Part shown: piece after piece, positions 5,381 through 64,000 of the stretch
How positions within the stretch are numbered: position 1 is the stretch's first letter
Layout: each line of letters starts with the position of its first letter
From: Candidatus Omnitrophota bacterium
GTDB taxonomy: Bacteria; Omnitrophota; Gorgyraeia; 2-02-FULL-51-18
Assembly (NCBI GenBank): GCA_945877765.1
Contig: CAMDWQ010000009.1
Location: forward strand, 7,409 to 71,408
Reading direction: 5' to 3'
DNA length: 64,000 nucleotides
Notes under the pieces: generated by a model
What the model was told of the DNA's origin: nothing
The model's database searches: none
Seen by the model: only the letters and a program-made list of their open reading frames with translations
Program-made: the position numbers and the translations under genes

Positions 5381-5475
5381 TTGTGTCCGCCGGGTGGCGC
5401 CGGAGGGGAGGCCTCCGCTGCGCGGAGTGAAAATTTACACGAGCACAGCGGAGTCCCGCAGGTGACAGGCCCCGG
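5381..5475. repeat. GC-rich structured repeat element, copy A, in the leader of ispA
   Basis: GGGTGGCGCCGGAGGGGAGGCCTCCGCTGCGCGGAGTGAAAATTTACACGAGCACAGCGGAGTCCCGCAGGTGACAGGCCC is about 95 % identical to 20125..20200. It contains several GC hairpins (CTCCGC/GCGGAG, GCGG/CCGC). Confidence 0.5.
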
Positions 5476-7611: not shown

Positions 7612-7647
7612 TTTGACCCCTAAAATTTAAATTTAGCCACGTTCAAA

Positions 7648-7675
7648 GTATATCATCCTACCTAAATATTGACAA
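7648..7675 (-). promoter_or_regulatory. sigma70-like promoter candidate for the DUF4160/DUF2442 pair
   Basis: On the minus strand: TTGTCA, a 16-nt spacer, then TATACT, about 35 nt upstream of the ATG at 7611. Confidence 0.35.
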
Positions 7676-7877
7676 AAAAATCTGGTGGTGGCTATAGTGG
7701 TGTGAATTGTAATTAGAAGTGCAACAGGGTTGGGGTGTGGGTTTGGAAGTAGGTTGGAAGAAAAAAGCCCCATAGATCTTAAAGTACTGTTACTTTGTAG
7801 GTGTCGAACAAACAAAGAACAGGAGAGATCTATGGAGCAGGTTAAAGTGGTCAAGTCTTTCCCTAGCCACATCCACA

Positions 7878-7912
7878 TGATCCCCGATTAGAAAATTCGG
7901 GGATGACATTGA
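7878..7912. repeat. REP/MITE-like hairpin element, single unit
   Basis: catGATCCCCGAttagaaaatTCGGGGATgacat; an 8-bp perfect stem ATCCCCGA/TCGGGGAT. It belongs to the same family as the elements at 17865, 22436, 39944, 44018 and 46037. Confidence 0.7.
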
Positions 7913-17864: not shown

Positions 17865-17942
17865 GTCATTCCCGAGTGCTTTAATCGGGAATCAAACTTG
17901 GATTAGACATGATCCCCGAAAAAAAAATTCGGGGATGACATT
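17865..17942. repeat. REP/MITE-like hairpin elements, two units (TTCCCGA/TCGGGAA type and CCCCGA/TCGGGG type)
   Basis: GTCATTCCCGAgtgctttaATCGGGAATCA ... catGATCCCCGAaaaaaaaatTCGGGGATGACAtt. Confidence 0.7.
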
Positions 17943-19195: not shown

Positions 19196-19204
19196 ATACT
19201 ATCC

Positions 19205-19345
19205 ATCCTTACTCTCTGCCTTTTCCCCTCCTTTCGAAGGAGGGGTGGTGCCGAAGGCGACGGGGTGGTTGACACGTTCAACAGCACGCGTAAAACCCTA
19301 CAACCCCACCGCCTCCGGCACCTCCCCTTCGTAAGGGGAGGAAAA
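19205..19345 (-). promoter_or_regulatory. GC-rich structured leader/terminator region with SD/anti-SD hairpins
   Basis: Minus-strand RNA: CCTCCCCTTacgAAGGGGAGG lies directly after the cysH stop. CCCCTCCTTcgaAAGGAGGGG lies about 25 nt before the ABC-ATPase start, followed by a free AAGGATGG SD. Confidence 0.3.
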
Positions 19346-19353
19346 TGTTTAGA

Positions 19354-20061: not shown

Positions 20062-20205
20062 TGCTCCCGCAACGGGTGGCGCCGGAGTTGCGCATATAAC
20101 GATAGGACATTGCTCCCGCAACGGGTGGCGCCGGAGGGGAGGCCTCCGCTGCGCGGAATGAAGAATTACATGAGCACAGCGGAGTCCCGCAGGTGACAGG
20201 CCCTG
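20062..20205. repeat. GC-rich structured repeat element, copy B, with an internal 24-nt tandem duplication; leader of cysH
   Basis: GCTCCCGCAACGGGTGGCGCCGGAG occurs twice, then GGGAGGCCTCCGCTGCGCGGAATGAAGAATTACATGAGCACAGCGGAGTCCCGCAGGTGACAGGCCC. This is near-identical to 5396..5470. Confidence 0.5.
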
Positions 20206-22435: not shown

Positions 22436-22506
22436 GTCATCCCCGAAATCTTTAATCGGGGATCATGTATAGGTTTGATTCCCGATTAAAACTCTCGGGA
22501 ATGACG
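22436..22506. repeat. REP/MITE-like hairpin elements, two units
   Basis: GTCATCCCCGAaatctttaATCGGGGATCATg tataggtt TGATTCCCGAttaaaactcTCGGGAATGACgtg, inside a 430-bp AT-rich intergenic region. Confidence 0.7.
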
Positions 22507-31413: not shown

Positions 31414-34400
31414 ACGCGCAGGGAACGACGTAAAGCGTCAGTACGGTCGAAAACAAGACGCCGCCGACGATTGTCACCGCCATAGGCACCATGGTTTCAG
31501 AACCCGATCCCCGCGCTAGGGCAACCGGAATCGCCGCCACAATCGTAGCCACGGAAGTCATCAAAATCGGACGAAGACGAATGGGACAGGCCTCTAGAAG
31601 CGCTTCACGCACCCCTTTTCCATGACGCCGGCTCTCATTGGTAAAATCCACCAAAAGAATGGAATTTTTTTTGACAATTCCCATAAGAAGAATAATACCA
31701 ATCATGCTGTACAGATTAAGCGAATTACGGCTCAGCCAGAGAGCGACAAACGCTCCGGTGATACTAAAAGGCAAAGCCAGAAGAACCGTGACCGGGTGAA
31801 TGAAACTATTGAATTGAGTCGCCAGCACCATGTACGCCACAAACAAGCCCAAAAGAAGCGCAAATTTTAAGCTGTCCGAAGATTCCTTAAAAGCCTGGGA
31901 GCCGCCGGAGAAAACCGCATGATATCCGGAAGGTAAAACTTCCTGGCTAATTTTTTTGACCAGATCCAAAGCCTCCTGCTGCGAATGGCCCGGGGCAGGG
32001 TTGGCGTAAATGCTGATGGCTCGTTCGCGATTTTTACGCGTGATGGAAAATAAAGTGGGTTTTACTTCGGACGTCACCACAGAAGATAGGGGCACCACTT
32101 CCCCGCTTTGATTACGCACCCACACTTTTTGAATATCGCCCGGACTAGATCGGTCGGTATCGGCCAGACGTACACGCACGTCATAGCGCTTTCCGTGTTT
32201 AGTAAACTTACCATTACGCACGCCGCCCACGGTGGCGTTAATGGTATCGGCTATGGAATGAATGTTGACTCCGTGCTCCGCTGCTTTTTGGCGGTCAGGC
32301 CGCACCTGGACTTCCGGCATTCCCAGTTGATAATCCGTATCGACGTCGATCATAAGCCCCGAAGCTTTCATCCGCTCCATCAGAGTCGTGGCGGATTTTC
32401 CCAACTGCTCCCAATCCTGCCCTTGGATCGTAAACTCCACCGGAAACCCTCTTTTGGCTGAAAAGCCCGATAAAGACAGATCTTGCATCACCGCGCGCTG
32501 AACGCCGGGAATGGCGCCAAATTCTTTTCGAAGGGTCTGCATGAATTCAGCTTGAGTCACCCGATGGCCATTGACTACGGGCCGGTCATGAATCTGCTTC
32601 ATCGTGACAAAAAGCATGCCGGTATTGGTTTGTCCGCCGCCAAAACCACCGACCGCGCTATAGTACTTGGATGCCTCCTCCCGCTTCATGACAATCCCCT
32701 CGGCGATTTTCATCACTTCATTTGTTTTTTCAATCGACGAACCCAGCGGCAGAACAACGCGAGCCAAAAACCGGCTCTGATCCTGCGAGGGGACAAATTC
32801 TTTTTTCAAAACTGTCGTCAATGCCAGTGAGGCGATAAAAATTAACACAGAAACAATCAGTACCATGACACGGTGGCTTAAGAAAAAACCTAAAGAGCTC
32901 TTATAAGCAGAAGTTAAATTTTTCAAATGGCCGTCCACAAATTTACCCAGACGCGTCGTATGCCCGACATCCAAAAATTGCGAGCATCGCATCGGCGCTA
33001 TCGTGAGCGCTTCCAAAAGCGAAAAAGCCACAGCGACAGAGATTGTAATACCAAATTGATAAAAAAACTTCCCCACTGTCCCCTTCATAAAAATAACTGG
33101 GATAAAAATTGCCAAAATCGCAATCGTTGCCGCCAATGCCGCAAAAGTAATTTCGCGCGCACCCGTGATGGCCGCTTGCACGCGGTGGAGACCCTTTTCT
33201 TGGTAACGTGAAATATTTTCCAAGACCATGATGGCGTCATCCACCACAATCCCGATGACCAGAGACAGGCCCAGCATCGTAAATGTATTCAGCGTAAATC
33301 CGAGAAGGTGAATCACAAAAAACGTGCCAAAGACAGAGACGGGAATCGCCAAAAGCACGTTGAGCGTCGCACTCCACGAACCCAAGAAGAAAAAACAGAC
33401 CAGCGATGTCAAAATGACCGAGAAAATTAAGTTCCGGGTCAGCTCATGGACTGAATCTTTAATAAACTGCGTCGTATCAAATACAAAATTCAGATGCATC
33501 CCTTCGGGCAGGCGCGTCTGAACCTCTTTCATTTTTTTCTCTACCGCACGAGCAACCGCCACGGCATTACTGCCGCGCTGTTTGACGATGCCAAGCCCCA
33601 CCGCCGGGCGCCCGCCACTTCGAGAGATACGCCGTAAATCCTCGAGGCCATCCTCCACCACCGCCACGTCCTTGATTTTCATTTCGTTCCACACGGGCCC
33701 GCCGCGCACGCGCTGAGGAAGTATCATGTTCTCAAATTCTTGGGGGGTCTGGGCTTCCCCGTAAACGCGGACATTCATTTCCTGACTGCCGGTATCAATA
33801 TAACCGGAAGGAAGATTGGCATGTTGAGCGCTGATGCCGGCAAGTACATCCTCCACCGTGATCTCTTGTTCGCGCATTTTTTTAGCATCCAGCCAGATAC
33901 GAAGGCTGGGATTGATATAACCGCCAAGTCTCACCTCGCCGACGCCTGCGACAGTTGTAAATTCATTCTTTAGGCTCTCGCTAATGTAAAGCATGATGTC
34001 TTTCAGCGGACGGTCTCCTGAGACGGCCATCCAAAGAATGGGCTGGTCCTCGGGGTTGGATTTCGACACCACCGGCGTATCGATGTCTTGAGGGAGATTT
34101 CTTTGGGCTTGGGCAATTTTGGTTTGCACATCTTGAAGGGCCGCGTCGATATTGCGGTTTAAATCAAATTCGATCGTGATGTTGGCGTCTCCCTGACGGG
34201 AAACCGACGAGACTTCCTTAATTCCTTCGACACTCATCACCGCGTCTTCGATAATATCGGTGACTTCGGTTTCCATGACTTCGGGGGCCGCACCTTCCCA
34301 ATTGACCGAAACCGTCACCACGGGGAAATCGACATCCGGTAATTGGCTGACACCCAGCTCTTTAAAACCAATCCATCCAAAAACCAAGATGCCGATCATG

Positions 34401-39943: not shown

Positions 39944-40014
39944 GTCATTCCCGAAAGTATTTATCGGGAATCAAACCTTAACATGATCCCCGATAAAAAA
40001 TTTCGGGGATGACA
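39944..40014. repeat. REP/MITE-like hairpin elements, two units
   Basis: GTCATTCCCGAaagtatttATCGGGAATCA aaccttaa CATGATCCCCGAtaaaaaattTCGGGGATGACA. Confidence 0.7.
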
Positions 40015-43921: not shown

Positions 43922-44017
43922 TCAAATTTCTCCGCGTGACTCATCATGCCTTATCATAGATTATCATAATTTATCATAGATTACTATAGCTTGTGATTCC
44001 GTATAAAAAGTTAGTAC

Positions 44018-44049
44018 GATCCCCGATTAGAAATTTCGGGGATGACATG
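44018..44049. repeat. REP/MITE-like hairpin element, single unit
   Basis: cGATCCCCGAttagaaatTTCGGGGATGACAt, near-identical to the unit at 7878. Confidence 0.7.
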
Positions 44050-46036: not shown

Positions 46037-46296
46037 CGTCATTCCCGAACACCACGCAGTGTCATCCCCGAAATTATTTATCGGGGATCATACATCACCC
46101 CACAGTGTCATCCCCGAAATTGTTTATCGGGGATCATACATCACCCCCACAGTGTCATCCCCGAAATTGTTTATCGGGGATCATACGCAGATTTGATTCC
46201 CGATTAAAACTCTCGGGAATGACGTAGGTGTTAGAGATCATACCTTAGTTTGATTCCCGATTAAAGCTCTCGGGAATGACGTTGTGGAATGACATT
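46037..46296. repeat. tandem array of REP/MITE-like hairpin units (about 6 units, both subtypes)
   Basis: Three near-identical about 46-nt units, acagtGTCATCCCCGAaattgtttATCGGGGATCATacatcaccc, flanked by TTCCCGA/TCGGGAA-type units. The 'spacers' are only about 11 nt and identical to one another. Confidence 0.75.
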
Positions 46297-51089: not shown

Positions 51090-54000
51090 TTAGGCGGCTT
51101 GCTCGGCCATGCGGGCGGTCATGTTGTAGGCACTGACGATATTAGCCACATTCAAGCAGTGAATGGCCAGTCGTTGGACGATGTCGGGGGTGAGTCCCAC
51201 GCCTTGCACGAAATTCAAGAATTCGACTGGGGCCGCGGCGGAGACGTCAGACCCCAGGGCCTGGAAAATTTCTCTTAACCGTTGCTGGTTACGTGGATGC
51301 TTTATTCCCTCTTTTCCTATTTCCGCTTCCGCGATTAATCCATGAATCAAAGCATCGAAATTGAGAAAACCTCTTTGGGTGGGGACCTGAATAATCAGAT
51401 GGAGCCTGTCTTGGCTAAGAATACGAATATTTTTAGGGTCCATCGCCTCCAACGAAGCGCTCTTCATCGATTTAATATTTGATGGAGCTTTTTTCAAAAT
51501 AAATGTCTGTGAAGGATACAGCGCCTCTGCGCGGTCCATAATTTTTTTCCTATTTTTTGGCGTGATTCCAACGATCTGAAAATAGACGTTGAATTTAGTT
51601 GCCTTGTGCATGGCGTTCACGAGCGCGTGGGTAAAAAGCTCATCCGTGGGTAATTTTTTTTGACTCATAAGTCCTTTGAGATTGATAATCAAAAATTTAG
51701 ACTCAGGCGTGATTAGAGATTCGGTGAGACTCCGGACTTTGTTGGTTTGCTCGGCGAGTTTGTTCTTTAGCTCCAGCTGAGAAAGAAGCTCGTCTTGGGA
51801 GAGCATCAACGTCGCGTCTATATTTTGACCTTTACGATTTCTTGTGATGATGGCTTTGTAATTCCTCAAGACAACCTCCATAGAGTCTTCAAAATAAAGA
51901 CGGAGAATCTTGGCATCATGGTCCAAAGTGAATCGCAGGGTCTGGTCTCCTATCACGAGGCTTCCTTCCACAAAATCACGGCGAGCACTAATAATGGCTT
52001 GGGCGGCGAAAACGAGCCTGTCGTGACGTTCAATGGTGCCGTTGGCATAAATGGTTGGTGCGAATTGCATGGTCGCCTTTAGCGCCCCCAAATGACGGGT
52101 AGGAGCTTCGGATGCCAACCGTGCCGCGTCTCGATATTCAACATACGATGATGTGCCTATTCCCCTGCCTTCAAATGTTAAAGGTATGCTGTGATATTCC
52201 CAAAATGAGAAATCCTTTACCTCTTTATTTACAAACGTGCCACGGGGATGATACTCCTCTATTTCTGGAAAAGCGGTATCTAGGACTTCCATCTTCTGCA
52301 AATGTCTCTCCTGGCGGTTGAACTGAATTCTGATGACTATCGGGAGTCTATAATTCCTCTTATTCCCATGGTCTAAAGCATTTCTTAACATCTCTTTGAG
52401 GATATAAGTTGCCCCGAAAGCGGAGTGGTCACCCGGGTTTTCTTTTATCAAAATATCTTCTATTGCCCTTGCAAGATAATAGAAGCGCGAAGACTCCGCA
52501 TCGTGCCCACTAAGCCTAGAGCGATCTTCTATGTGAGAAAGATCAATCCATAGCGGCTGCTCATTTTTAATGGCATCACTTAAAGCCTCTTTATCGACCG
52601 GCGATGACAGATCTATTTTTATTAATTTCGTATTTCTTGCCACATATTCTAATAGTGCCTTAGAGGACGTCTGTTCTTCCCTCTTTTTTTTGTCATACTC
52701 CACTAGCCTTGTTTGAATACTAAAATTACTTTTTGTCAAAAGTTTATCCCGCACGATGATTGGAAGCTGTACGCTGTCATCAGGCACTACAAAACGTAGA
52801 TTAACCTTACCCCCTTCAATCTTCGTAAAAAGCATTGTGATTTGTTCTAAAATAGGGGTCTTTCCCCGGATTGCGATTGTATCTTTTGGGGTGGGGTGAT
52901 TTTCAAGAAGTATCCGTGAAACTTTATTCCAATCAGGACTTTCTGGTCCATTGGAAGTCTGAACCACAATGTAATTACCAGCCGCATTGATCTTGTCCAC
53001 ACGGACCTGCACCAAGTTGTGACTTTCTTGATCATAGACCCATATTAACTCGCCTTCATTGGCAGGCATCCAAATCGGTGTGGTTGCCAACCGGGCACCA
53101 TTCGGATCCCCGCTGAGGCTTTGCTCATCGGTTGCTGCAACACGTGACCCTTGGCCTGCGGGGCTCTCTCGGGATAGATGTTCTAGCGCAACAGCGACGT
53201 CGTTCGTCACAACAACAGCTGCTGTTGGGTATAACTTAAGAAAGTTTTTAAGTAATGTTGCTCTTTCGTCGTCATCCGTAATTCGGTTGATCCTAGCCAA
53301 CTCTTGATTAGCTGCGGAAGAAACATCTGCCAAATCAGGGTAGCTAGGATACAGATCAATGCTGGTGATCGTACCTCCCAAATTTAGAAGTGTGGGCAAT
53401 AGCGGTGAATTTCTTCCTATGGATCCAACCTGAGCAGTTGACTTGCTAAGATTCGCAGATAGAGCCGCCTTTAATGCGTAGTGATACAACATTTTAAACA
53501 ATGCGTGTCCTTTATAATCATCCGATCTTGCTAGTGAGGCATTGCCCAATATTCTCTGCTGTTCATCCATAATGATTATTATCCCCACAAAATATGCTAT
53601 CAACTTTCCTTTATCATCACGAATCACAAAACTAATAGAACTAGGCCTACTAGCCAATTCTGCAATGCGTAAGGGTTCCATTCCCGTCGGCGGAAGACTC
53701 TGGATTTCTTCTGCTTTGAGAATATTTTTTCCCCCTACTCTCTCTAGGACCAAATCATGCTTTTCTCCATCTTTTACTATGCTAAATCGGTGAGGGAGTA
53801 GCCCTGTGAATGCATTGTCTATCAGAGATTGATCGTTCTGGAAACATATCATCTCAATCTCATTGACGTATTTCCTGAATTTATCACCGTAACCTGCATA
53901 CCTATCGTTATCTGCATACTTATAAAGAGCATCATTATCCGCTAAAAACCTTTCCATAATATTCAAGGCTGCATCTACATTCGTATTACCGATAGGGTAT

Positions 54001-57000
54001 CTAGCCACCAGACGGGTTGAAGAGCTACGATCAGGCAGAGCCATGATATTTCTCTGAATACTTAGATCAGCTATAACCCCATTGTCTTGGCTAATAAATA
54101 AACTCACCCCAAGATTTCTTTTAATTTTGCGTGCTATGGATACTATTCTTCCCGCCGGGTTCATGTCTGATATAGATTGATGATCGAAATTAACCAATCT
54201 GGCTGTTTCTTCCTCTGAGATTGCCAACCGCGCGCCGACCAAATCGTGTTGAGCGTCTTCCCCGTTTGTCCGAATCTTTTTGAGACTGGTCAGAAACAAA
54301 AATCTCTTCTCTGGTGGGATCGTACGCATCACTGATTCTGCGATAGACAACACTCTGGCTCGATAGTCACTATCCATGTCATTGAGCGCTAACAAAAGAC
54401 TATCCAAAACCACGGGTGTCCGATATTTAGCCAAATCATGAAGGCGTTGCCTCACCAATTCGGTCACGTGCAATTCATCCGGCCCGTGAGCTAATTCCTT
54501 TAATAGGTACAGCAATTCCCGTGGCTCAACATTCGATCTGAGCGAGTTGGACAGCCGCATCGACCGTGGTAATACTTGAATTAGCTGATAGTCTTCCAGG
54601 CTCCGGCCATTGGGGCTAGTTCGCATGCTTGAGTCGATTGTCCTTTGATTTATAAAAAAATCCTTGTTTTGGCCAAAGCCATAATTAGACTCATCCGCAT
54701 GGATCGTTTGCCAGGCTAGCAGGTATCCGCCCGTAAGAGGAATACTCTCATTCACCATTCGAAGCCTATCCCTCGTATCTTTCACCGGTCCCATGTCAGG
54801 CACGATCACCAGAGACGGCCTAGTCTCTTCCGAAGCATAAGACAGACCTCCGGGCTTGAGAAAATCAACAACCTCCACCGAAAACTGGGCCGGTGGAATT
54901 CCAAGCTCGACAGCCGCCCGATCAAGAAGTGCGGCCTTTTCCCGCTCCTCTGGAAGCAAAAGAAATCTTATGCTCTTTTCCGAAAGCGCAAGACCCAAAG
55001 CCAGTAAGCCAGCACCCTTGCCGCCGCCAAGAATTAGCACTTCTTTCGTTGTTGCTTCTGGTAATTTGAGAATAGTTTCCAATGCTTCTCCTCTTGAAAA
55101 GTTGGCATCGTCATCAAATTCGAATATTTCTAATTTGTCCACCCCAACCACTTTCCGAATTTTTTCAATATATTCTTTGCCAATCACATCTATAGGCTTC
55201 ATCACTTCTGCGACTTTTTTTAGATACTCAGCCATCATTGATTCACGTAATTCGTTGAGTCTCGCATCAAGACTTTCAATCCTCTGGACTATTTTTTTAG
55301 CTTTTGTGAGCACTTCAGCTTCATTTTGATATCTTTCAAGCTCAGGGATAGAATTTGCAATTTGAACTCCCTCTTCACGTGCCGCCGTAACCTGCTGGCC
55401 AAAAAGCAAAATATTTTGATTGGATACGTCACGAAGAGAGATCTGCTGCCAGCTTGAAAGATTACGTAACGCATCATTTTGTGAGGAAGTCATTCTTTCT
55501 AGATGACGGCTTGTAAGATGACTCACGAGCATGATGACTTCTGCTTTTACATCCTCCCATTGGGCTGTTTTAAACCAGTAAGCACGGCCAACTTTATAAT
55601 CTAAATGCCACTCAATCGTATCTAATAAATAAGCAAGAAAAACACTTGCTCTTAATGGAACTTCAAGCTCGTGGTTGACCGGTAATCCTCTGTCTTCAAC
55701 TGGAATTAAATAGTCAGCGTTCTTGACGGCAATAAAGTCACCGAATGCCGTTGGTTCATTCGCATAATAACGAATGGAAAAACCATTTCTCATAAAAGGA
55801 TCTGGGATTGACGTAGAAGTAACATAAGCGCCTTCAGGCTTAAGCATTTGCTTAATTGAGGCTACCCATATATCTAAAATCAAAAATTTCATCTCAACTA
55901 AAGGCAGTCCCGCGAAAGAAGGCAAGGTTTCATCTATAACACTATTGGACATAATCAAATCAAACGATCCAGTCATATCACTTAGCGAGGATTGAATAAA
56001 ATTTACTTTTAAGATAAGTGCTTTTTTTAAATCATCGGCACCCGCCCAAACTGAAAGTTCATTTCTCATGCCTTCAAACATCCCATCAGACAGGTCGATC
56101 ACCGTCAATGATTGCATCTTCGGTAATGCGATCAATATAGAAATGATTTCTTTAGCATTTTTACCAGGTCCTATAAGAAGAAGATCTCCCGTTTGGATAG
56201 GATGACGATAGGGCTCCTTAAGATCCGAAAGGAGGTTGGTAATCTGAAGCGCAAATGTATTTTCAAGGCTTTCTTCTTCCGCCAACCGCGCGCCACCCTT
56301 ATTCCGAATACTGGCTTGCTCACTCGACAAATCAAGATCCGCGCGAACAAAAAATTTATCGACAAGTGCTTCTACGACTAAATTTTCAGATTCAGAAAAC
56401 ACACCCCACTGGCTTCCACCAACAAAAGACTGTAAGAAAGGAAGTGATTTTGGAAACCAGACCGTTGCCTCTCCTGATGGGCTAACGATCATCTCAGGTG
56501 CTCCGCTATAGGAAATCTCTGTTATATCAACGGTTGATGGGTAAAGATTTCCATTGGGGTGAAAATGCATCCCAAATACCAACGGGTTATTCTTGGCCGG
56601 TTCGAAGAGGCAACCAATAAAATCACTTTCACTTCTAATCACCGTGCCCTTCCACTCGCCTCTTAGATTGAAATAAAAGTTGGTTTGAGCGGATGTTGCT
56701 GTTTCCGTTTCATCAACCATATCCAAAGCCCACGATTGTGCATTGAAATAAAATGAGCTTCTTCGCTCCAGAGGAAGGTGATTCACAGCATCACCAAGTC
56801 CGTAATGCCTAAACAAATCTCCGGGTGTGGTTTCGATCCCTGGGTTTTCAGGTATTAGATCTAATCCAAAAAATTGCTCCTGAGAGATACTGATCTTTTC
56901 TAACATAGTAGGTATTGAGTATTTCATTATGAGCTCATCTCTATAATTCTTAAAATATCCATTACGAAGATTGAAAGTAAAAATACGCGCACTCTTGTCA

Positions 57001-60000
57001 TCAAGACTCAATCGTGCTTTATCATCTATCCTATAGATCTCATACAAAGAATTAAAACTCAGAAAGCTGAGTTGTCTCCGCTGGGCATTAATAGCGTCAA
57101 TAATGGGGGTATGACGAAGAATAAGTTCTCTTAATCTGTTAACCTTCTCTTGCGAATCACTTATCAACAAAACTGACTCTGTCTCTTCTGTGTCGATTGG
57201 AATCGCAGAGGCCAGCCGGGCGCCTATATCACCGGACACAGTTGAGTGGAGACCTGATTCGGCATCGCTGTCTTTTTTCCTGAGGATCTCATAAATCACC
57301 CAGTCTTGATAATTTCTAAAAGAGATACGCTCTCTTTGGTGAACCTCAAAACCGCCAAATGCTTGGGTCAGTGACTCTAAGGTAGGGATGGCATACTCAA
57401 TGAATTTGAAATCGGTTAGAACCTCTTCATGAGAAGTATCCAGCGTCGTAATAATAATCCGTCCATTTTTAGCCAAGTGCCCAAGGATGTTTGGGATCAA
57501 TTTATCCGGATTCATGTGTCCATAAGAATCTGCAAGCAGAATAACGTCAAACGGATCCCCTAAATCAAAGGGATCTTCGGCGCTCTGCTGTAGGACGGGG
57601 ACGCGTCTGATTTGCGTAAAAAGCGCTTGCCGCCTATTCAGCTCGATTGCATGCACCACATGCCCTGGCGGCTCTTCCATCAATTCTTTTTCGATAATGC
57701 CGGGGCCGGATCCTATGGATAATATTCTGAGTTTTTTATTCTGCCCTGCAGTGATAATCGCCTTCAGCTTATCTCGATAGGATCTGTCTATGACCGATGG
57801 ACTAATTGCATCCCTATTGAAGAATGCTTTTCCATCAGAATTATACCGATTATATAATTCATTTTTGTTTGACGGTGATTCCGCCAACCGCGCGGCGACC
57901 TGATCCGTCAGCGCTTTCTGAGCCTCCAACACCCGGCGCAGCGTTTCCTTTAAATCAGGATTCATAGCGTCCGAGATCTGAGGGCTAAACATCCCCAACA
58001 CTCCCACTCGCTTGCCTTCGGAGTCATAGAAACGCAGTTTGGCAGTATCTACGATTATCGGCTTATCTCCGCTCTCGTTCCGCTCCGGTTTAAGGAGAGG
58101 TTCGCCACGTTCTTTTTGCAAAGCTTCCAAATCAACATCTGTGTATTGATTGGCTAGATCCAGTGGATTTTTTTCAACATAAGTTTTCCCGACCCAATCT
58201 TTTTTATCGCCATTGGTGCCATCCGACCTTCTCATCGCATCAAGAAAAGCCTGATTGATGTAAATAATGACTTGGCTTGAGGGATCCGCGAGTTCGTCAT
58301 AATAGGTGACGAAAACAGGGTGAGCTGCATCGTCAAATTGTTTGAAATCTGCTTTAAGCGGTGTCCCAAGCACGGGCTCCTTTTCTTTTTCTTTAATCCT
58401 CCTGAGAATATTAGCTTGATCCGTCTGACGCAACAACGCCTGCAGTTTCGGAATCCTATTCTTCCAAGCCACTGACCTCAGAAATGACGGCATATCCGAG
58501 TGAAAAAGACTTAACATCGCCTCGTAAATATACGGATCGCCCACCGTATACTCCGCGGCAAAATAGTTTCTAATGAACCCTCCGGGACTTTGTTCTCTCG
58601 AGTCCGCATCACCAAATTCATCAATTTTTTGGGCCAGAACATTCAATAATGGGGCCGGTGGGAAATCTATCGGTAGGATGACTGCAGATTCACCCGCAGC
58701 AGAGGCTTGGAAGGTTAGCTCGATGAAATCTCCAACGGTCTGCTGGTAATGAACAGATTTTGCTTGGACATCTTTTCTCTGTTTAAGAATTTTTAGAAAA
58801 GCTTCAATAAACGAGGCTCTGGTATCTAAATCATCATCTCGCAAGATTACATCTATATCTCTAGAGGCTCTGCTGACAGAGGGCGCATTGGCGATCCACT
58901 TCCACTCTCCTGTGTCATCCTTGCCGAACCCGCGCTCTTCCATATGGGCATACCCGGTACGCAAATATCTGGCACTTCCTCCGATCCGTGCGTGCTTATC
59001 AGCTTGTTGGATCAACTGCTCAAGAAGGCGTAGATTAATTTCCCTATTTTCGGGATCAAAAAGCCGCTCGTCCGTAGGTGAAAATGTTTCGCTTGCAGGC
59101 TTTCCGGATCGGCCGAAGGTGGGAGCGGTAGAGGCCAACCGCGCGGCGGAAGCACTAGAATTAAGATCTATCCCATGAATGGAAAATGTGGCTGTTGAAT
59201 TTGCGGCGTCTTCTTTGACGGTAATCGCACGGCCTAGGGCATTGGCACTGGTAGAAATTGGTGAATTGTTGACAAGGTCGACAACGGGTTTCTGCCGCTG
59301 GAACCATGGTTGATGCCAAGGACTAGTCACATCGACATTCAAAAGTCCCTGATCATTGGAATGAAATCGAAGTTGTATTCGTTCCTTTTTGCTCGAATGA
59401 CCAAGCGCAGCAGCCAAAAGCAACTCCAGCATTGTTTTTAGTTGCTTGAATTGACTTGGCTGACCATTGATGAGCATTGACTCCATCCCACCGTAGTCAA
59501 TGTCAATACGCCCCCGGTCTATTGGCTTAAGTCTTAAATCATCCTCAATTCTTGCAATTAGGCTAGCAAGCGTGATGGGCGAGCGCAGCTTCGATCTAAG
59601 CTCATTCAAGATAGGTTTATTTTTTTTATTTCTGATGGTTTTTAAAAAAAGTTTTATTTTTTTCTCGGACCTTGCCTTTTTAAAAATTTCCTCTATTTTT
59701 TTTAATTCAGTTGACGTTGGATGATCAAATATTTCTTCGTAAAGCGGCATAGCGTCTTGAATATTATTCGCTAAGCCCGCCGCTTCTCCGGTCAATTGAT
59801 CGATATAAAATTCAAATGGCGTCAAATAACTGTCCTTTTGCACATCCACCTCTTGGGTGGGGTATATAAATCCGTCATCAATAATCCGAATATTTTTTAA
59901 ATCAACGCGCCGCCCATCGTACACCCCGGAATTGATCAAGTGCGGGTCCGCATCAAGAAACCCTTTTTCCATCAACGATCTCTGGTGTTGGCCAAAGAGA

Positions 60001-63000
60001 CGGATGTCTTGAGCGCTAATTTTATTTTTAAGAAGATTATTCAAAATACCTACGCTTCTTTGAACAACCACACGTCGTGTGCCTCCGTCCATTTGCCAAT
60101 CCAAATCATAAGAAATGAGCGTTATCTTTTTTTGTCGTAAACTGGCGGCAAGCTCTTTTCTGGATTTGCCATTCAAAGGAAATGAGATGTAAGAGAATCC
60201 CCCGATTTTCCTAAATTCCTCTGCCTTGATGTCCTTCCATTCGATTTTTACCACGAAAGATCTGCCTTTTTCACCTTGAAGAGATTTAGCGGCAAAAACA
60301 ATGTAATCCCCGCCCTGCCCAAGGTAGTTGAGCCCTTCAGGCACTCTGGAAAGAGATACTTTTTTTTGTTTTCTTGGTGCAACAAGAACCTCTCCAAACC
60401 ATCTGCGAAGCATCGCGGTATCTACACCAGCAAGAGCTTTCTGCAGCCCTTCGATGATTGCTTGGGCTTGCCTTGGGTCAGAGGGGGCATTGGCTGGATC
60501 AGACCAACTTACCTCCGCCAACCTCGCCCCGGCGCCCTTTTCATTTCCACCAAACTTTTTAGGAATGGGGACCGAGACCATTCGCCTTTTTTTTGGATCT
60601 TTTCCAACCCTGTAGGTGTGTTCAAAAGATCTTACTGTCGGTTTCTGTCCATCATGATCCACGCGAAGACTATAAATACCTCGGTTTTGGTTGACCGCAC
60701 TGGCATCTAGGACAAACTGCAGGTATTGATTGCCTTTCAAGGATACGTTATTCAGAATTGCGGCCATCGCTGAGGACGTTCTTTTTGGGTTAATGAACAG
60801 GTGTAAATTTTGGGCAGGCACTATTTTGTGTAAAACTCCTGGCAGAACGTCTCCGGAAACCACGATTGGAGAGAGCTTCTTATTTTCTCTTCTTAGTGAT
60901 TTGACAAACTTGCTTAAATGCTCAAAACTTTGCTTTTTCAGCCGCACCATATCTCTAGAAGCACCGTTAAGTTTCATTTTTTTCGGATCTGTTCTGTCTG
61001 ACCACACATCCTCCTGGTACCAATCAGAGCCCTTAACATCTCCTCTTGGGCTATTGGCATGTATCAGCACGATATCGGCTTCATCGTCAGAGGTTGTCTC
61101 AAAACGGACTATTGTCGATAAATGCATCAGCACTTCCCGCAGTTGATTTTGCAGACGCTCCCGTGGTAGCCCTCGATGCATTGATTCGTTTTGAATCAAC
61201 AATTCTAGATCCACTCCTTGATTGTGCTCCTTATTATTATCAGATATGTCCATTTTACCAACAGGTTCATTCCCGCTAACATGCGCCGCCTCATGATCCG
61301 CTAAGACCATATGAACATTTTCAGGAGCTTGGTTCATCAGGTACAAAATAGCCAAATGCGCCCTGAAGCTATTCCAGTAGTTGGCGTCGGTCATACGAAT
61401 GGAGGGGTGCAGAATATCGCCCACGAAAAATATTTTTGCCTTACCCGATAAGATGTCGTCCAAGATTGGGATGATTCTGGCTTTAAGACTCTGCGATTGG
61501 CCATGAATATCCCCGATAAATAGGGAATACTCGGAATCAGCCTGAGAGACACTTCTTAGGGCTTTGCCTTGGTGTTGGGTCACACTTGGAAACTCACCAA
61601 TTTCAATGGCTTCGGCAGTGGTTGCCGCGTCTTTTAAAATTTGAAGGGCTTTTTTAAGATCAAGTGAGGAGTGGCCGTTGGCATCCAATTTTTCAGGCGT
61701 GAGAAGTAGGAGGAGTTCATTTCTTGTTTCATCCCTATCTGCCAACCGAGTCCCGGAAGAACGAGCAGTCAAAATTGCCCTGCTCTTGAGAATGGGCTGT
61801 TCAAGGTCATTCAAGTCGAGCTCATAATCATAGCCAAGGCGGTCGTGAAGAAGGCGCACCATGCGGCCAGCAATCGAGAACCTAGATTTAAGCCATACAA
61901 AATGGTCCCCACGCGCCTTACGCCGGGCCTCGATGGTCTTGTCCGCGTGTACGTAAAGCGTGCGCGCCATGGGACGCAGTGATCGAAAAAGCGGTGCCGA
62001 AGAGGAACCCACCACCACGAAGAACGTATCCCGATTAGCCTCCAAAGAAATAGTGTGGATCCCATTCAATTCGTCATGGAGTGGCGCGGCATCAATCTGG
62101 ATAGTTTTCCATCCGAAATTGGTAAGCCTCTTCATCCGGAAGATTATTTCTCGCACAGTAGACATTTGCATGTCGATATGAATGATAAAGTCTTCAAAAA
62201 AACCTAGCGGCATGTAATAAATACCGGGGAAATTTAAAATAAAAAACTGAAAAAGCGAAAAAATCTGCCACACGAAGCCCTTGTGGTACAACCAGTCCGT
62301 CTCAATGACACGCGCAGGCACAAACTTGACATTCTCTCCTTCTTTGCCAAAATGATCGGCAAGATTCTTGGCAAAGGTCGACTTTCCTGAGCCTGGAACA
62401 CCGTCAATGATCAAGAGCCGGTAAACACCATTCCTAACCTCCTCAGGCGTCGGGCGAAGAGCATCGTAAATAGCCGGATAGGTGTCTGCTACAAACTCGA
62501 ACTTCTCCTGTTGTTTCACACCTTGGAATTGTGAAGCGGTGTTTTCCGCCAGCCGGGCGCCCTCGCTATGTGATTTTAAGGCGATCTGGGCCGCTCTTTC
62601 AATAGCGCCTCTACCCAACCTGGAGTACCGTTCTTGTTTTTCTTCATCTTCAGTTGCAGAAAAAAGAATTCCATATATTTGACCTAAGGCCAACAGAATG
62701 GGTCTCGAATTTTGAGGATCAATTCCGACTGCTTTTTCGTAAGCAGTGATGGCCTCCTCAAAGCGCCCTTGAGCAGCATAAACGTTGCCTAAGACTCCCC
62801 AACCACCGTGTGATAGTGGATTCCATTCCAAGCCGATGTTAAGAAGCATTTCGGCTGAGGCATACACTTTTGCCTCATAATACCGCAAGGCATTTTCAAA
62901 AAAAAGGATATGCGCAAAAGAAGCGCGCTCCACTCTCCAAAAATCTTCAAACAACTCAATAAAATATCCCACATCTTTAAACTTCAAATCATTATCGATG

Positions 63001-63998
63001 ACTTCCGTATGATCTAGAATACCCGCAATGTTGCTTGCCAAAAATGCGGACCCCTTCATATTGTCAGGAATATCTATCCGAGGGTCGTCCAAAACTCTAT
63101 CCATTTGAATCATCGAATCACTTGAACCTTTAAAGACCCCTGTTTGTTCTAATATCGCCCGCAAAGTGCGGTAATGCATCGCACCGCCGATATGAAGCAG
63201 CCGAAGCCAGCTGAGTCCCGGAGGTAACGCCAGAGGATCCGTATGACTGACTATCTGGAAAAGCTTCTGGCCCATCATCTTCCCTTGCACCACATCTCCC
63301 AAGAGAATATGAATCTGCGTCAGATAGCGCGAAACAATGATCGTATTTAGCAGCTCCTCATCCAATCCTATGGCTTTTAAATCCTTGCCGTACCTTTTTT
63401 TAATCCCTTCAATGACCTCTCGGTAGGATGGGTCCGGAGAATAATACAACACGAGCGGTTCGTGAATAGTGGGGCTATCATCAGAGTCCACCCAAAGAAT
63501 TTTATTTTCCTTCAAATCATTTATTTGTGAAGGACTCAGCGACAAACTTTCAAAAAGATCCTCTGCATTCATATCCTGTGCGTCCGGATCCTTATCCCCC
63601 CACCGAGCCATCAGCGGATTCTCTCCGTACAAAAGTATTCTTTCTGTTTTTTGGGACGCTGCTTCAAAATCCACGCCCATAAAATAACTACGCATCCGAT
63701 GCATTGCGTATCGCGTTGCCCTTGAAGCATTGACTCCATACAAGCGAGGCCAATCGCTTTCAGTCGAAAAAGGCATCATTTTATTTGCTTCTAAAAGAAT
63801 TGTTCCCCAGAGCTCATTTTTCTGAGCAACTGCAGACCCGCTCCCATCTTGCGCGAAACGCTTCACTGCTAGAGGGGGCAGCTCAATGCTCGCGGCGAAT
63901 ACACCTTGAAATAAATCGTTTAGTTCCTTATCGGTGAGCGCTCTTAAACCATGATGTTCGCCAACTGCATGATAAACATTGGCGAGAGTAACTCCCAC
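51090..63998 (-). CDS. giant multidomain protein of at least 4302 aa, N-terminus outside the window (reading frame open to the window edge; first in-window codon is GTG)
   Basis: Recognisable modules from the N-terminus: TPR repeats (AITAYEKAVGIDPQN); a P-loop GVPGSGKST; a calcineurin-like phosphoesterase (FIGDIHGQ...FVGDILH...LADHEAAH); a class-I SAM-MTase (ILSIGSGPGII...VILLADSYGHM...NGRIIITT); a second Rossmann/MTase-like domain (LLLIGPGKNAKEI...FDLIMSN...LKPEGAY); a third (VLILGGGKGAGLLAL...LKPGG); a GHKL/RsbW-like N-box (LKEMLRNALDHG); and at least 10 occurrences of the [GA]ARLA[SE] signature. Confidence 0.8.
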   Translation of the reverse strand: MGVTLANVYHAVGEHHGLRALTDKELNDLFQGVFAASIELPPLAVKRFAQDGSGSAVAQKNELWGTILLEANKMMPFSTESDWPRLYGVNASRATRYAMHRMRSYFMGVDFEAASQKTERILLYGENPLMARWGDKDPDAQDMNAEDLFESLSLSPSQINDLKENKILWVDSDDSPTIHEPLVLYYSPDPSYREVIEGIKKRYGKDLKAIGLDEELLNTIIVSRYLTQIHILLGDVVQGKMMGQKLFQIVSHTDPLALPPGLSWLRLLHIGGAMHYRTLRAILEQTGVFKGSSDSMIQMDRVLDDPRIDIPDNMKGSAFLASNIAGILDHTEVIDNDLKFKDVGYFIELFEDFWRVERASFAHILFFENALRYYEAKVYASAEMLLNIGLEWNPLSHGGWGVLGNVYAAQGRFEEAITAYEKAVGIDPQNSRPILLALGQIYGILFSATEDEEKQERYSRLGRGAIERAAQIALKSHSEGARLAENTASQFQGVKQQEKFEFVADTYPAIYDALRPTPEEVRNGVYRLLIIDGVPGSGKSTFAKNLADHFGKEGENVKFVPARVIETDWLYHKGFVWQIFSLFQFFILNFPGIYYMPLGFFEDFIIHIDMQMSTVREIIFRMKRLTNFGWKTIQIDAAPLHDELNGIHTISLEANRDTFFVVVGSSSAPLFRSLRPMARTLYVHADKTIEARRKARGDHFVWLKSRFSIAGRMVRLLHDRLGYDYELDLNDLEQPILKSRAILTARSSGTRLADRDETRNELLLLLTPEKLDANGHSSLDLKKALQILKDAATTAEAIEIGEFPSVTQHQGKALRSVSQADSEYSLFIGDIHGQSQSLKARIIPILDDILSGKAKIFFVGDILHPSIRMTDANYWNSFRAHLAILYLMNQAPENVHMVLADHEAAHVSGNEPVGKMDISDNNKEHNQGVDLELLIQNESMHRGLPRERLQNQLREVLMHLSTIVRFETTSDDEADIVLIHANSPRGDVKGSDWYQEDVWSDRTDPKKMKLNGASRDMVRLKKQSFEHLSKFVKSLRRENKKLSPIVVSGDVLPGVLHKIVPAQNLHLFINPKRTSSAMAAILNNVSLKGNQYLQFVLDASAVNQNRGIYSLRVDHDGQKPTVRSFEHTYRVGKDPKKRRMVSVPIPKKFGGNEKGAGARLAEVSWSDPANAPSDPRQAQAIIEGLQKALAGVDTAMLRRWFGEVLVAPRKQKKVSLSRVPEGLNYLGQGGDYIVFAAKSLQGEKGRSFVVKIEWKDIKAEEFRKIGGFSYISFPLNGKSRKELAASLRQKKITLISYDLDWQMDGGTRRVVVQRSVGILNNLLKNKISAQDIRLFGQHQRSLMEKGFLDADPHLINSGVYDGRRVDLKNIRIIDDGFIYPTQEVDVQKDSYLTPFEFYIDQLTGEAAGLANNIQDAMPLYEEIFDHPTSTELKKIEEIFKKARSEKKIKLFLKTIRNKKNKPILNELRSKLRSPITLASLIARIEDDLRLKPIDRGRIDIDYGGMESMLINGQPSQFKQLKTMLELLLAAALGHSSKKERIQLRFHSNDQGLLNVDVTSPWHQPWFQRQKPVVDLVNNSPISTSANALGRAITVKEDAANSTATFSIHGIDLNSSASAARLASTAPTFGRSGKPASETFSPTDERLFDPENREINLRLLEQLIQQADKHARIGGSARYLRTGYAHMEERGFGKDDTGEWKWIANAPSVSRASRDIDVILRDDDLDTRASFIEAFLKILKQRKDVQAKSVHYQQTVGDFIELTFQASAAGESAVILPIDFPPAPLLNVLAQKIDEFGDADSREQSPGGFIRNYFAAEYTVGDPYIYEAMLSLFHSDMPSFLRSVAWKNRIPKLQALLRQTDQANILRRIKEKEKEPVLGTPLKADFKQFDDAAHPVFVTYYDELADPSSQVIIYINQAFLDAMRRSDGTNGDKKDWVGKTYVEKNPLDLANQYTDVDLEALQKERGEPLLKPERNESGDKPIIVDTAKLRFYDSEGKRVGVLGMFSPQISDAMNPDLKETLRRVLEAQKALTDQVAARLAESPSNKNELYNRYNSDGKAFFNRDAISPSVIDRSYRDKLKAIITAGQNKKLRILSIGSGPGIIEKELMEEPPGHVVHAIELNRRQALFTQIRRVPVLQQSAEDPFDLGDPFDVILLADSYGHMNPDKLIPNILGHLAKNGRIIITTLDTSHEEVLTDFKFIEYAIPTLESLTQAFGGFEVHQRERISFRNYQDWVIYEILRKKDSDAESGLHSTVSGDIGARLASAIPIDTEETESVLLISDSQEKVNRLRELILRHTPIIDAINAQRRQLSFLSFNSLYEIYRIDDKARLSLDDKSARIFTFNLRNGYFKNYRDELIMKYSIPTMLEKISISQEQFFGLDLIPENPGIETTPGDLFRHYGLGDAVNHLPLERRSSFYFNAQSWALDMVDETETATSAQTNFYFNLRGEWKGTVIRSESDFIGCLFEPAKNNPLVFGMHFHPNGNLYPSTVDITEISYSGAPEMIVSPSGEATVWFPKSLPFLQSFVGGSQWGVFSESENLVVEALVDKFFVRADLDLSSEQASIRNKGGARLAEEESLENTFALQITNLLSDLKEPYRHPIQTGDLLLIGPGKNAKEIISILIALPKMQSLTVIDLSDGMFEGMRNELSVWAGADDLKKALILKVNFIQSSLSDMTGSFDLIMSNSVIDETLPSFAGLPLVEMKFLILDIWVASIKQMLKPEGAYVTSTSIPDPFMRNGFSIRYYANEPTAFGDFIAVKNADYLIPVEDRGLPVNHELEVPLRASVFLAYLLDTIEWHLDYKVGRAYWFKTAQWEDVKAEVIMLVSHLTSRHLERMTSSQNDALRNLSSWQQISLRDVSNQNILLFGQQVTAAREEGVQIANSIPELERYQNEAEVLTKAKKIVQRIESLDARLNELRESMMAEYLKKVAEVMKPIDVIGKEYIEKIRKVVGVDKLEIFEFDDDANFSRGEALETILKLPEATTKEVLILGGGKGAGLLALGLALSEKSIRFLLLPEEREKAALLDRAAVELGIPPAQFSVEVVDFLKPGGLSYASEETRPSLVIVPDMGPVKDTRDRLRMVNESIPLTGGYLLAWQTIHADESNYGFGQNKDFFINQRTIDSSMRTSPNGRSLEDYQLIQVLPRSMRLSNSLRSNVEPRELLYLLKELAHGPDELHVTELVRQRLHDLAKYRTPVVLDSLLLALNDMDSDYRARVLSIAESVMRTIPPEKRFLFLTSLKKIRTNGEDAQHDLVGARLAISEEETARLVNFDHQSISDMNPAGRIVSIARKIKRNLGVSLFISQDNGVIADLSIQRNIMALPDRSSSTRLVARYPIGNTNVDAALNIMERFLADNDALYKYADNDRYAGYGDKFRKYVNEIEMICFQNDQSLIDNAFTGLLPHRFSIVKDGEKHDLVLERVGGKNILKAEEIQSLPPTGMEPLRIAELASRPSSISFVIRDDKGKLIAYFVGIIIIMDEQQRILGNASLARSDDYKGHALFKMLYHYALKAALSANLSKSTAQVGSIGRNSPLLPTLLNLGGTITSIDLYPSYPDLADVSSAANQELARINRITDDDERATLLKNFLKLYPTAAVVVTNDVAVALEHLSRESPAGQGSRVAATDEQSLSGDPNGARLATTPIWMPANEGELIWVYDQESHNLVQVRVDKINAAGNYIVVQTSNGPESPDWNKVSRILLENHPTPKDTIAIRGKTPILEQITMLFTKIEGGKVNLRFVVPDDSVQLPIIVRDKLLTKSNFSIQTRLVEYDKKKREEQTSSKALLEYVARNTKLIKIDLSSPVDKEALSDAIKNEQPLWIDLSHIEDRSRLSGHDAESSRFYYLARAIEDILIKENPGDHSAFGATYILKEMLRNALDHGNKRNYRLPIVIRIQFNRQERHLQKMEVLDTAFPEIEEYHPRGTFVNKEVKDFSFWEYHSIPLTFEGRGIGTSSYVEYRDAARLASEAPTRHLGALKATMQFAPTIYANGTIERHDRLVFAAQAIISARRDFVEGSLVIGDQTLRFTLDHDAKILRLYFEDSMEVVLRNYKAIITRNRKGQNIDATLMLSQDELLSQLELKNKLAEQTNKVRSLTESLITPESKFLIINLKGLMSQKKLPTDELFTHALVNAMHKATKFNVYFQIVGITPKNRKKIMDRAEALYPSQTFILKKAPSNIKSMKSASLEAMDPKNIRILSQDRLHLIIQVPTQRGFLNFDALIHGLIAEAEIGKEGIKHPRNQQRLREIFQALGSDVSAAAPVEFLNFVQGVGLTPDIVQRLAIHCLNVANIVSAYNMTARMAEQAA

Positions 63999-64000
63999 CC

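Follow-up and report, generated by a model that had tools for sequence, protein, structure and literature searches.

CGTC-tagged REPs (Di Nocera et al. 2013, PMC3733652) carry a CGTC or TGTC tag, an 8- to 9-bp stem whose first bases are almost always AT, and a 3-nt tail with the consensus CCA. They mostly form tags-outward dimers and are frequently heterodimers. Their sites are between genes that are unidirectional or convergent, and in other genomes most such REPs are found downstream of ORFs (PMC3733652). Members include dRS3 of Neisseria and RPE-4 and RPE-6 of Rickettsia, and the families CGTC-1 to CGTC-4 have loops of 4 to 5 nt. The phyla covered were Proteobacteria, Chlorobi, Bacteroidetes, Spirochaetes and Thermotogae. 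The same study reported that CGTC REPs never flank a RAYT gene, including in genomes that have RAYTs (PMC3733652).

The NTS, CGTCATTCCCGCGMAVGCGGGAATCYRG, is the oriented form of dRS3 (Chenal et al. 2025, Nat Commun, PMC11893778). SsnA is a 94-aa single-domain GIY-YIG nuclease that binds the NTS only as ssDNA and cuts a few nucleotides upstream; in N. meningitidis, the three bases before the palindrome are the main determinant of cleavage. The C just after the palindrome matters most for binding. Cleavage does not depend on loop identity and tolerates a missing or longer loop. SsnA showed no binding to RNA. Across phyla, ssnA genes are flanked by Ssn-related motifs (SRM), and 19% of SRM-rich genomes are without an SsnA homolog (PMC11893778). 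NTS and SRM repeats occur as hundreds of intergenic copies in many phyla. Chenal et al. raised the analogy with insertion sequences, and mobility was not demonstrated (PMC11893778). In the literature, binding and cleavage have been demonstrated only for the Neisseria and Wolbachia enzymes, with short-loop motifs.

We analyzed a 64-kb stretch of DNA from an uncultured PVC-group bacterium (the window). At six intergenic loci, it contained 13 complete hairpin units together with 2 half-units, against about 0.1 expected by chance. These units are likely to be long-loop members of the CGTC-tagged REP/SRM family, with an Ssn GIY-YIG ssDNA nuclease as their partner. The family is already described and is cross-phylum. 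What is new here is a subfamily with a 9-nt loop that lies outside both published sequence definitions. The initial annotation had recognized a dispersed REP-like family of intergenic palindromes at six loci, arranged singly, in pairs and as an array, and this description was borne out.

The pattern CCCCGA-N(6-14)-TCGGGG matched 8 times in the window and TCCCGA-N(6-14)-TCGGGA 5 times, against 0.07 and 0.03 expected from shuffles. An nhmmer profile made from the units retrieved exactly the 13 full units in the window, with a weak match to a half-unit at 46037-46049. The half-unit remnant at 46287-46294 was identified by reading the sequence, separately from the profile result.

Each unit is oriented. 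It consists of GTC, an 8-bp arm (ATCCCCGA or ATTCCCGA), a 9-nt loop, the complementary arm and C. The stem (ATYCCCGA) is 8 bp long and perfect in 13 of 13 units. GTC lies directly 5' of the palindrome, and C directly 3' of it (tails CAT, CAA or CGT), in all 13. The symmetric form first given to the units, with loops of 8 to 10 nt, needs correction on both counts, as one side carries GTC and the other C and the loops are all 9 nt long. Type A reads, on the tagged strand, (T)GTC-ATCCCCGA-N9-TCGGGGAT-CAT, with a CGT tail in one unit, and type B reads (C/T)GTC-ATTCCCGA-N9-TCGGGAAT-CAAA. Each of the three pairs contains one A and one B unit, inverted so that the GTCAT tags face outward (tags-outward, HH). 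Folding energies as ssDNA were -7.7 to -8.2 kcal/mol for single units. For doublets, which form either two hairpins or a single long, imperfect one, they were -17 to -21.6 kcal/mol.

The first locus lies between the YmdB and DUF4160 genes. The window sequence at 7878-7912 is CATGATCCCCGATTAGAAAATTCGGGGATGACAT. It contains a single type-A unit on the minus strand at 7880-7907, GTC-ATCCCCGA-ATTTTCTAA-TCGGGGAT followed by C, which starts 8 nt past the YmdB stop codon and folds at -8.2 kcal/mol. An 81-aa ORF at 7633-7878 (minus strand) has its ATG within the hairpin tail and is without a Pfam match or gene call. A 10-bp tandem duplication, TAAAGTGGTC, at approximately 7853 interrupts this ORF in a sibling sample. 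The ORF is probably not a gene.

Three loci contain HH doublets. The doublet at 17865-17939 has a type-B unit at 17865-17892 (plus) and a type-A unit at 17912-17939 (minus). It occupies the 103-nt gap between the JAB and ThiS-PALP genes, which are functionally linked and appear to form an operon, and it ends 17 nt before the next start codon. The doublet at 22436-22505 has a type-A unit at 22436-22463 (plus) and a type-B unit at 22478-22505 (minus). It lies between the PilT and PAPS reductase genes and folds as one long hairpin at -18.5 kcal/mol. The doublet at 39944-40013 has a type-B unit at 39944-39971 (plus) and a type-A unit at 39986-40013 (minus). It lies between the FadJ gene and a ParA-like gene, and its fold is -21.6 kcal/mol.

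The fifth locus, between the RecQ and response regulator genes, contains a single type-A unit at 44019-44046 (minus), 40 nt past the RecQ stop codon. In the same intergenic region, a short tandem repeat of TTATCATAGA (3.3 copies, 43951-43983) adjoins the hairpin.

The sixth locus, between the GHL10 and RecQ genes, is an array in which three tandem type-A units face two type-B units, with a half-unit (tag plus 5' arm) at each outer edge. The left half-unit, GTCATTCCCGAA, is at 46038-46049 (plus) and contains the tag, the 5' arm and the first loop base. The type-A units are at 46061-46088, 46107-46134 and 46154-46181 (together 46061-46181, plus), with a period of 46 to 47 nt. Tandem Repeats Finder reported a three-copy array with a 46-nt period at 46050-46186. 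The first type-B unit (46196-46223, minus) forms a further HH dimer with the third type-A unit, and the second (46253-46280, minus) overlaps the 3' end of the GHL10 gene. The right half-unit remnant, GTCATTCC, is at 46287-46294 (minus), within the GHL10 coding sequence. The array overlaps the last 34 nt of GHL10, so the repeat sequence encodes its C terminus, ...NVIPQRHSREL*. For annotation, the hairpin elements account for this odd GHL10 C terminus and for the spurious 81-aa ORF.

The window belongs to the 74.8-kb ENA metagenome contig ERZ27280294 k141_787946. Nearly all genes in the window are on the minus strand. The GC skew of the plus strand is negative throughout, so the minus strand is probably the leading strand. 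The genes on either side of each of the six loci are co-directional and on the minus strand. None of the loci lies between convergent genes, so that of an earlier description of the sites as convergent or co-directional only the second half stands. The gaps to the upstream stop codon are, in order, 8, 11, 225, 45, 40 and -34 nt. Both single units are on the sense strand relative to the genes.

The window also contains a second, unrelated set of long GC-rich palindromic repeats in intergenic regions, at 19196-19353 and at 5391-5472 and 20122-20203, with a further copy at 6275-6402 of L121, a near-identical MAG contig that overlaps the left end of the window. In this set, a 128-nt element shares 94% identity with a copy that lies outside the window, and the two members of an 82-nt pair share 95%. 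For the four intergenic regions that contain these repeats (158 to 172 nt), RNA minimum free energies are -72 to -81 kcal/mol, and Rfam returned no match to any of them. A giant ORF at 51090-64000 (minus) continues past the window end and is annotated with 5,489 aa on the full contig. The organism encodes DUF1571.

The units share several features with the NTS and SRM. GTC lies directly 5' of an AT-initiated, C-rich palindrome (arm ATTCCCGC in the NTS; ATTCCCGA or ATCCCCGA here), and C lies directly 3' of it. In other genomes, the same kind of unit is present on both sides of a small GIY-YIG gene. Judged by sequence, the window subfamily keeps both of the experimentally critical positions, GTC and C. 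It differs from the NTS in its loop, which is 9 nt long with its own conserved consensus, against 3 to 4 nt in the NTS. It differs from SRM in its tail, which is CAT or CAA rather than CYR, and in its host, a PVC-group bacterium. The published SRM motif, HGTCWYN(0-2)YYVSBRHN(0-5)WNVSBRGN(0-2)RNCYNB, had 0 matches in the window. It misses the units because their loop is 2 nt too long and their tail is CAT or CAA, not CYN; type-B units fail also because of the inner stem. When the motif was relaxed to a loop of up to 9 nt and a tail of RNC, it matched 8 of 8 type-A units. The type-B units still failed, and there was one chance match in coding sequence (33235-33266).

The likeness to CGTC REPs is also close. 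The units have the CGTC or TGTC tag (TGTC in type A; CGTC or TGTC in type B), an 8-bp stem beginning with AT and a 3-nt tail. HH dimers prevail, heterodimers are present, the units sit between unidirectional genes with occasional overlap of a gene end, and there is no link to a transposase. The difference is again in the loop, which is 9 nt in 13 of 13 units, against 4 to 5 nt. The PVC group, Elusimicrobia, Nitrospirota and others seen here are outside the phyla of PMC3733652. Identity of the unit sequence with the CGTC/SRM family is a matter of observation.

The family is not restricted to the window, as a local duplication would be. A seventh copy is present at 12473-12543 of L121, approximately 7 kb past the left end of the window. 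The closest relative genome, with a RecQ 84% identical, contains a 92%-identical doublet elsewhere (L047); the next named RecQ matches were from Omnitrophica. The RecQ-response regulator intergenic region is 33 bp without a hairpin in this relative, against 165 bp with the hairpin in the window. Insertion boundaries cannot be defined downstream of RecQ, because the intergenic region of the relative is not alignable there. The TTATCATAGA tandem repeat is likewise absent from the 33-bp region of the relative. Upstream of RecQ in the relative (L204, 4850-4905), a different perfect palindrome with 22-bp arms, GGGGACATCATACTTAATTG...CAATTAAGTATGATGTCCCC, replaces the array. These differences indicate turnover of hairpin elements. 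Same-species contigs from sibling samples (99.9% identical) had no hairpin polymorphism and only the 10-bp duplication nearby.

We scanned 185,579 species-representative genomes for the exact type-A unit, GTCATCCCCGA-N(8-10)-TCGGGGATC. It was retrieved from at least 119 stretches in more than 15 phyla; simple arithmetic gives approximately 3 matches by chance. The matches listed include Omnitrophota, Elusimicrobia, Nitrospirota, Desulfuromonadales/Geobacter, Planctomycetes and Leptospiraceae. They also include Zetaproteobacteria, Coxiellaceae, Colwellia, Ignavibacteria, Calditrichaeota, Firestonebacteria and others. Among the matches listed, 81 pairs were tags-outward, 14 tags-inward (TT) and 10 tandem (HT). 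The usual arrangement among them is an A unit, a spacer with a median of 25 nt, and an inverted ATTCCCGA or ATTCCCGC unit. ATCCCCGA with ATTCCCGA or ATTCCCGC is the dominant heterodimer in this set (46 of the 81 tags-outward dimers). The two arm variants had earlier been read as a sign of active diversification. The dominance of the A plus B heterodimer across phyla instead makes the pairing a conserved design, not local diversification.

GTC follows a T or a C in 90% of units among the matches listed. The common tail in other phyla is CCA in the same set, and the window tails are CAT and CAA. The 9-nt loop of type-A units keeps the consensus R-T-G-Y-T-T-T-T-R across phyla (loci L002 to L120), and the window loops are AT-shifted relative to it.

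One junction recurs. A half-unit, GTCATYCCCGARTGC, is followed by approximately 10 C-rich nucleotides and a full unit, as at both ends of the window array. It is also present in L037, L052, L053, L065, L072, L075, L088 and L118. Across phyla it was found at 16 of 294 units (14 outside the window array), against 2 in a downstream control. The junction hints at a footprint of copying that acts at the tag and 5' arm.

In Elusimicrobia and relatives, hairpins tend to lie just upstream of type-IV-pilin-like genes with the N-terminal GFTLIELLVVVLIIGILAA (L005, L012, L017, L048, L079, L092, L104, L107, L112 and L113). These pilin-like genes are the largest recurrent ORF cluster near the hairpins among the matches listed. 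The exact type-A unit was also retrieved from IMG/VR, in 13 stretches (L210 to L222) from 11 distinct viral contigs, one of which carries it in four places. These stretches may be prophage or host flanks or true phage DNA.

Two hairpin loci among the matches listed, L009 and L037, encode a small GIY-YIG protein, and an hmmsearch with the nuclease profile on the genome hairpin loci matched only these two in that set. L009 is from Omnitrophota. It encodes a 92-aa protein that matches Pfam PF01541 (E = 7.6e-17), and its gene has an A plus B doublet upstream and a B-type unit downstream. L037 is from Mariprofundaceae, and its gene has 9-nt-loop units on its flanks. The L009 protein family has 7,996 database matches, and the best 120 of the 7,996 are 68 to 80% identical to the L009 protein. 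C-terminal extensions in the family are often translated hairpin sequence (...DWIPD...). Only sub-threshold NCBIfam matches to the family were found, and PDB matches were only to distant UPF0213 GIY-YIG proteins. Its assignment as Ssn-type is putative, and rests on the PF01541 match, the protein size and the SRM-flanked architecture.

In a reciprocal test, we sought units within 400 bp of the gene in 80 metagenomic loci that encode relatives of the L009 protein. Units were present at 76 of the 80: both sides of the gene had them in 58 loci and only one side in 18. The other 4 had none. Within 400 bp of the gene there were 3.0 units per kb, compared with 0.10 per kb at greater distances and 0 after shuffling. 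The nearest unit had its tag outward at 60 of 68 loci on the upstream side and at 57 of 66 on the downstream side. When palindromes were detected without a flank requirement, 114 of 123 had GTC...C on exactly one strand. The association of this unit type with ssn genes in other genomes is likewise a matter of observation.

Long-loop units (8 to 12 nt, mostly 9) with ATYCCCGA/C stems were present at 10 of the 80 metagenomic nuclease loci. Flanking units that combine a 9-nt loop with an ATYCCCGA stem are present at the nuclease gene in L009, L037, L127, L131, L138, L144, L164, L167, L187 and L190. In a neighbor-joining tree, which is weak for proteins of approximately 90 aa, the long-loop loci are scattered. 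Loop length would therefore not be tied to one enzyme clade, which agrees with the published dispensability of the loop (PMC11893778).

The units could instead be mainly RNA elements, that is, terminators or 3' stabilizers that protect the upstream genes against exonucleases. Their position suits such a role, since five of the six loci start no more than 45 nt downstream of a stop codon or overlap it, both singletons are on the sense strand, and such REPs lie mostly downstream of ORFs elsewhere. No unit is followed by a T/U run, and one doublet lies 17 nt upstream of a start codon in the 103-nt gap between functionally linked genes. Intrinsic termination, which the initial annotation had suggested, was rejected on this lack of a T run. 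Terminator and promoter scans, which allow loops only up to 8 nt, flagged no unit, and Rfam at gathering thresholds gave no match. An RNA role also leaves unexplained the strand-specific GTC...C flanks, the cross-phylum identity and the bracketing of ssn genes, and SsnA does not bind RNA (PMC11893778). We regard a mainly RNA role as quite unlikely; the units may have a secondary effect on mRNA 3' ends. A further proposal was that they are REPINs mobilized by a RAYT (an IS200/IS605-type Y1 transposase) encoded elsewhere in the genome. The resemblance to REPINs and BIMEs is real: these too are short, oriented and palindromic, lie at intergenic sites and form inverted doublets that can fold into a single long hairpin. 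RAYT systems likewise have a single-copy gene bracketed by repeats, with ssDNA hairpin recognition proposed. Their tag is GTAG, however, and that of the units is (C/T)GTC; REPs with the CGTC tag are reported never to lie beside RAYT genes (PMC3733652). The gene bracketed by the units encodes a GIY-YIG nuclease rather than an HUH/Y1 enzyme, Pfam annotation of the window gave no Y1_Tnp and no other transposase, and ORF clustering near the hairpins gave no recurrent transposase family among the matches listed. RAYT-REP families are also largely species-specific, whereas the type-A unit is identical across phyla. Mobilization by a RAYT is thus highly improbable.

The units may also be orphan relics of the SRM family in a lineage that has lost the nuclease, and be inert or merely recombinogenic palindromes. 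There is no ssn gene in the 64-kb window or in the approximately 9 kb of L121 past its left end, and 19% of SRM-rich genomes are without an SsnA homolog (PMC11893778). The lineage-specific tail (CAT or CAA rather than CCA) and the AT-shifted loop could be drift. The perfect stems in 13 of 13 units and the invariant GTC and C argue for recent activity or selection, however, and the element content differs from that of a relative with an 84%-identical RecQ. We consider this reading unlikely. Two other candidates were rejected. The doublets are inverted repeats, as in a MITE of a DDE insertion sequence, but none of the flanks, all of which were inspected, has a direct duplication. The array is not a CRISPR array, as the sequence between units is itself repeated (95% identity) and does not consist of unique spacers.

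We therefore return to the units as long-loop members of the CGTC-tagged REP/SRM family with an Ssn partner. Each unit would be an oriented ssDNA hairpin, whose tagged strand folds when it becomes single-stranded during replication, DNA uptake or repair. The folded strand would then be bound by a single-domain GIY-YIG nuclease of approximately 95 aa from the Ssn family, which would nick the tagged strand a few nucleotides 5' of the GTC tag. The A plus B doublets look like gene-less derivatives of an ssn cassette, because elsewhere the ssn gene is bracketed by units in the same tags-outward architecture. Any effect on transcripts would be a secondary one. The genome of the window would encode an Ssn enzyme able to cut units with a 9-nt loop, and the units may have spread through Ssn or otherwise.

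Three observations count against this reading. The partner enzyme is putative, as hmmsearch with the profile found no Ssn-like ORF in the window or in the approximately 9 kb of L121 past its left end. A GIY-YIG regular expression had no match in the window ORFs, and Pfam annotation of the window gave no GIY-YIG gene. The published SRM motif matches none of the units. The conserved R-T-G-Y-T-T-T-T-R loop is not explained by a model in which Ssn alone acts and ignores the loop.

The ssn cassette (GTCAT-hairpin, GIY-YIG gene of approximately 95 aa, hairpin-ATGAC) may itself be an autonomous mobile element, and the doublets non-autonomous derivatives that are still spreading. We hold this to be possible but doubtful. 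It is consistent with the identical unit in more than 15 phyla among the matches listed, with nucleases that are 68 to 80% identical (best 120 of 7,996), and with the half-unit plus full-unit junctions (16 of 294 units against 2 in the control). If true, it would be a mobile element that uses a GIY-YIG ssDNA nickase, not a transposase of any known class.

Both the SRM motif and the CGTC-REP definition cap the loop length, so they miss the long-loop subfamily completely. Surveys based on the two definitions undercount Ssn-associated repeats in the PVC group, Elusimicrobia, Nitrospirota, Desulfuromonadales and others. The long-loop units add candidates to the catalogue of natural Ssn target sites, and Ssn enzymes are under development as site-specific ssDNA cutters. 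The clean gene-less HH doublets, which mirror the ssn cassette, sharpen the question of how these repeats multiply.
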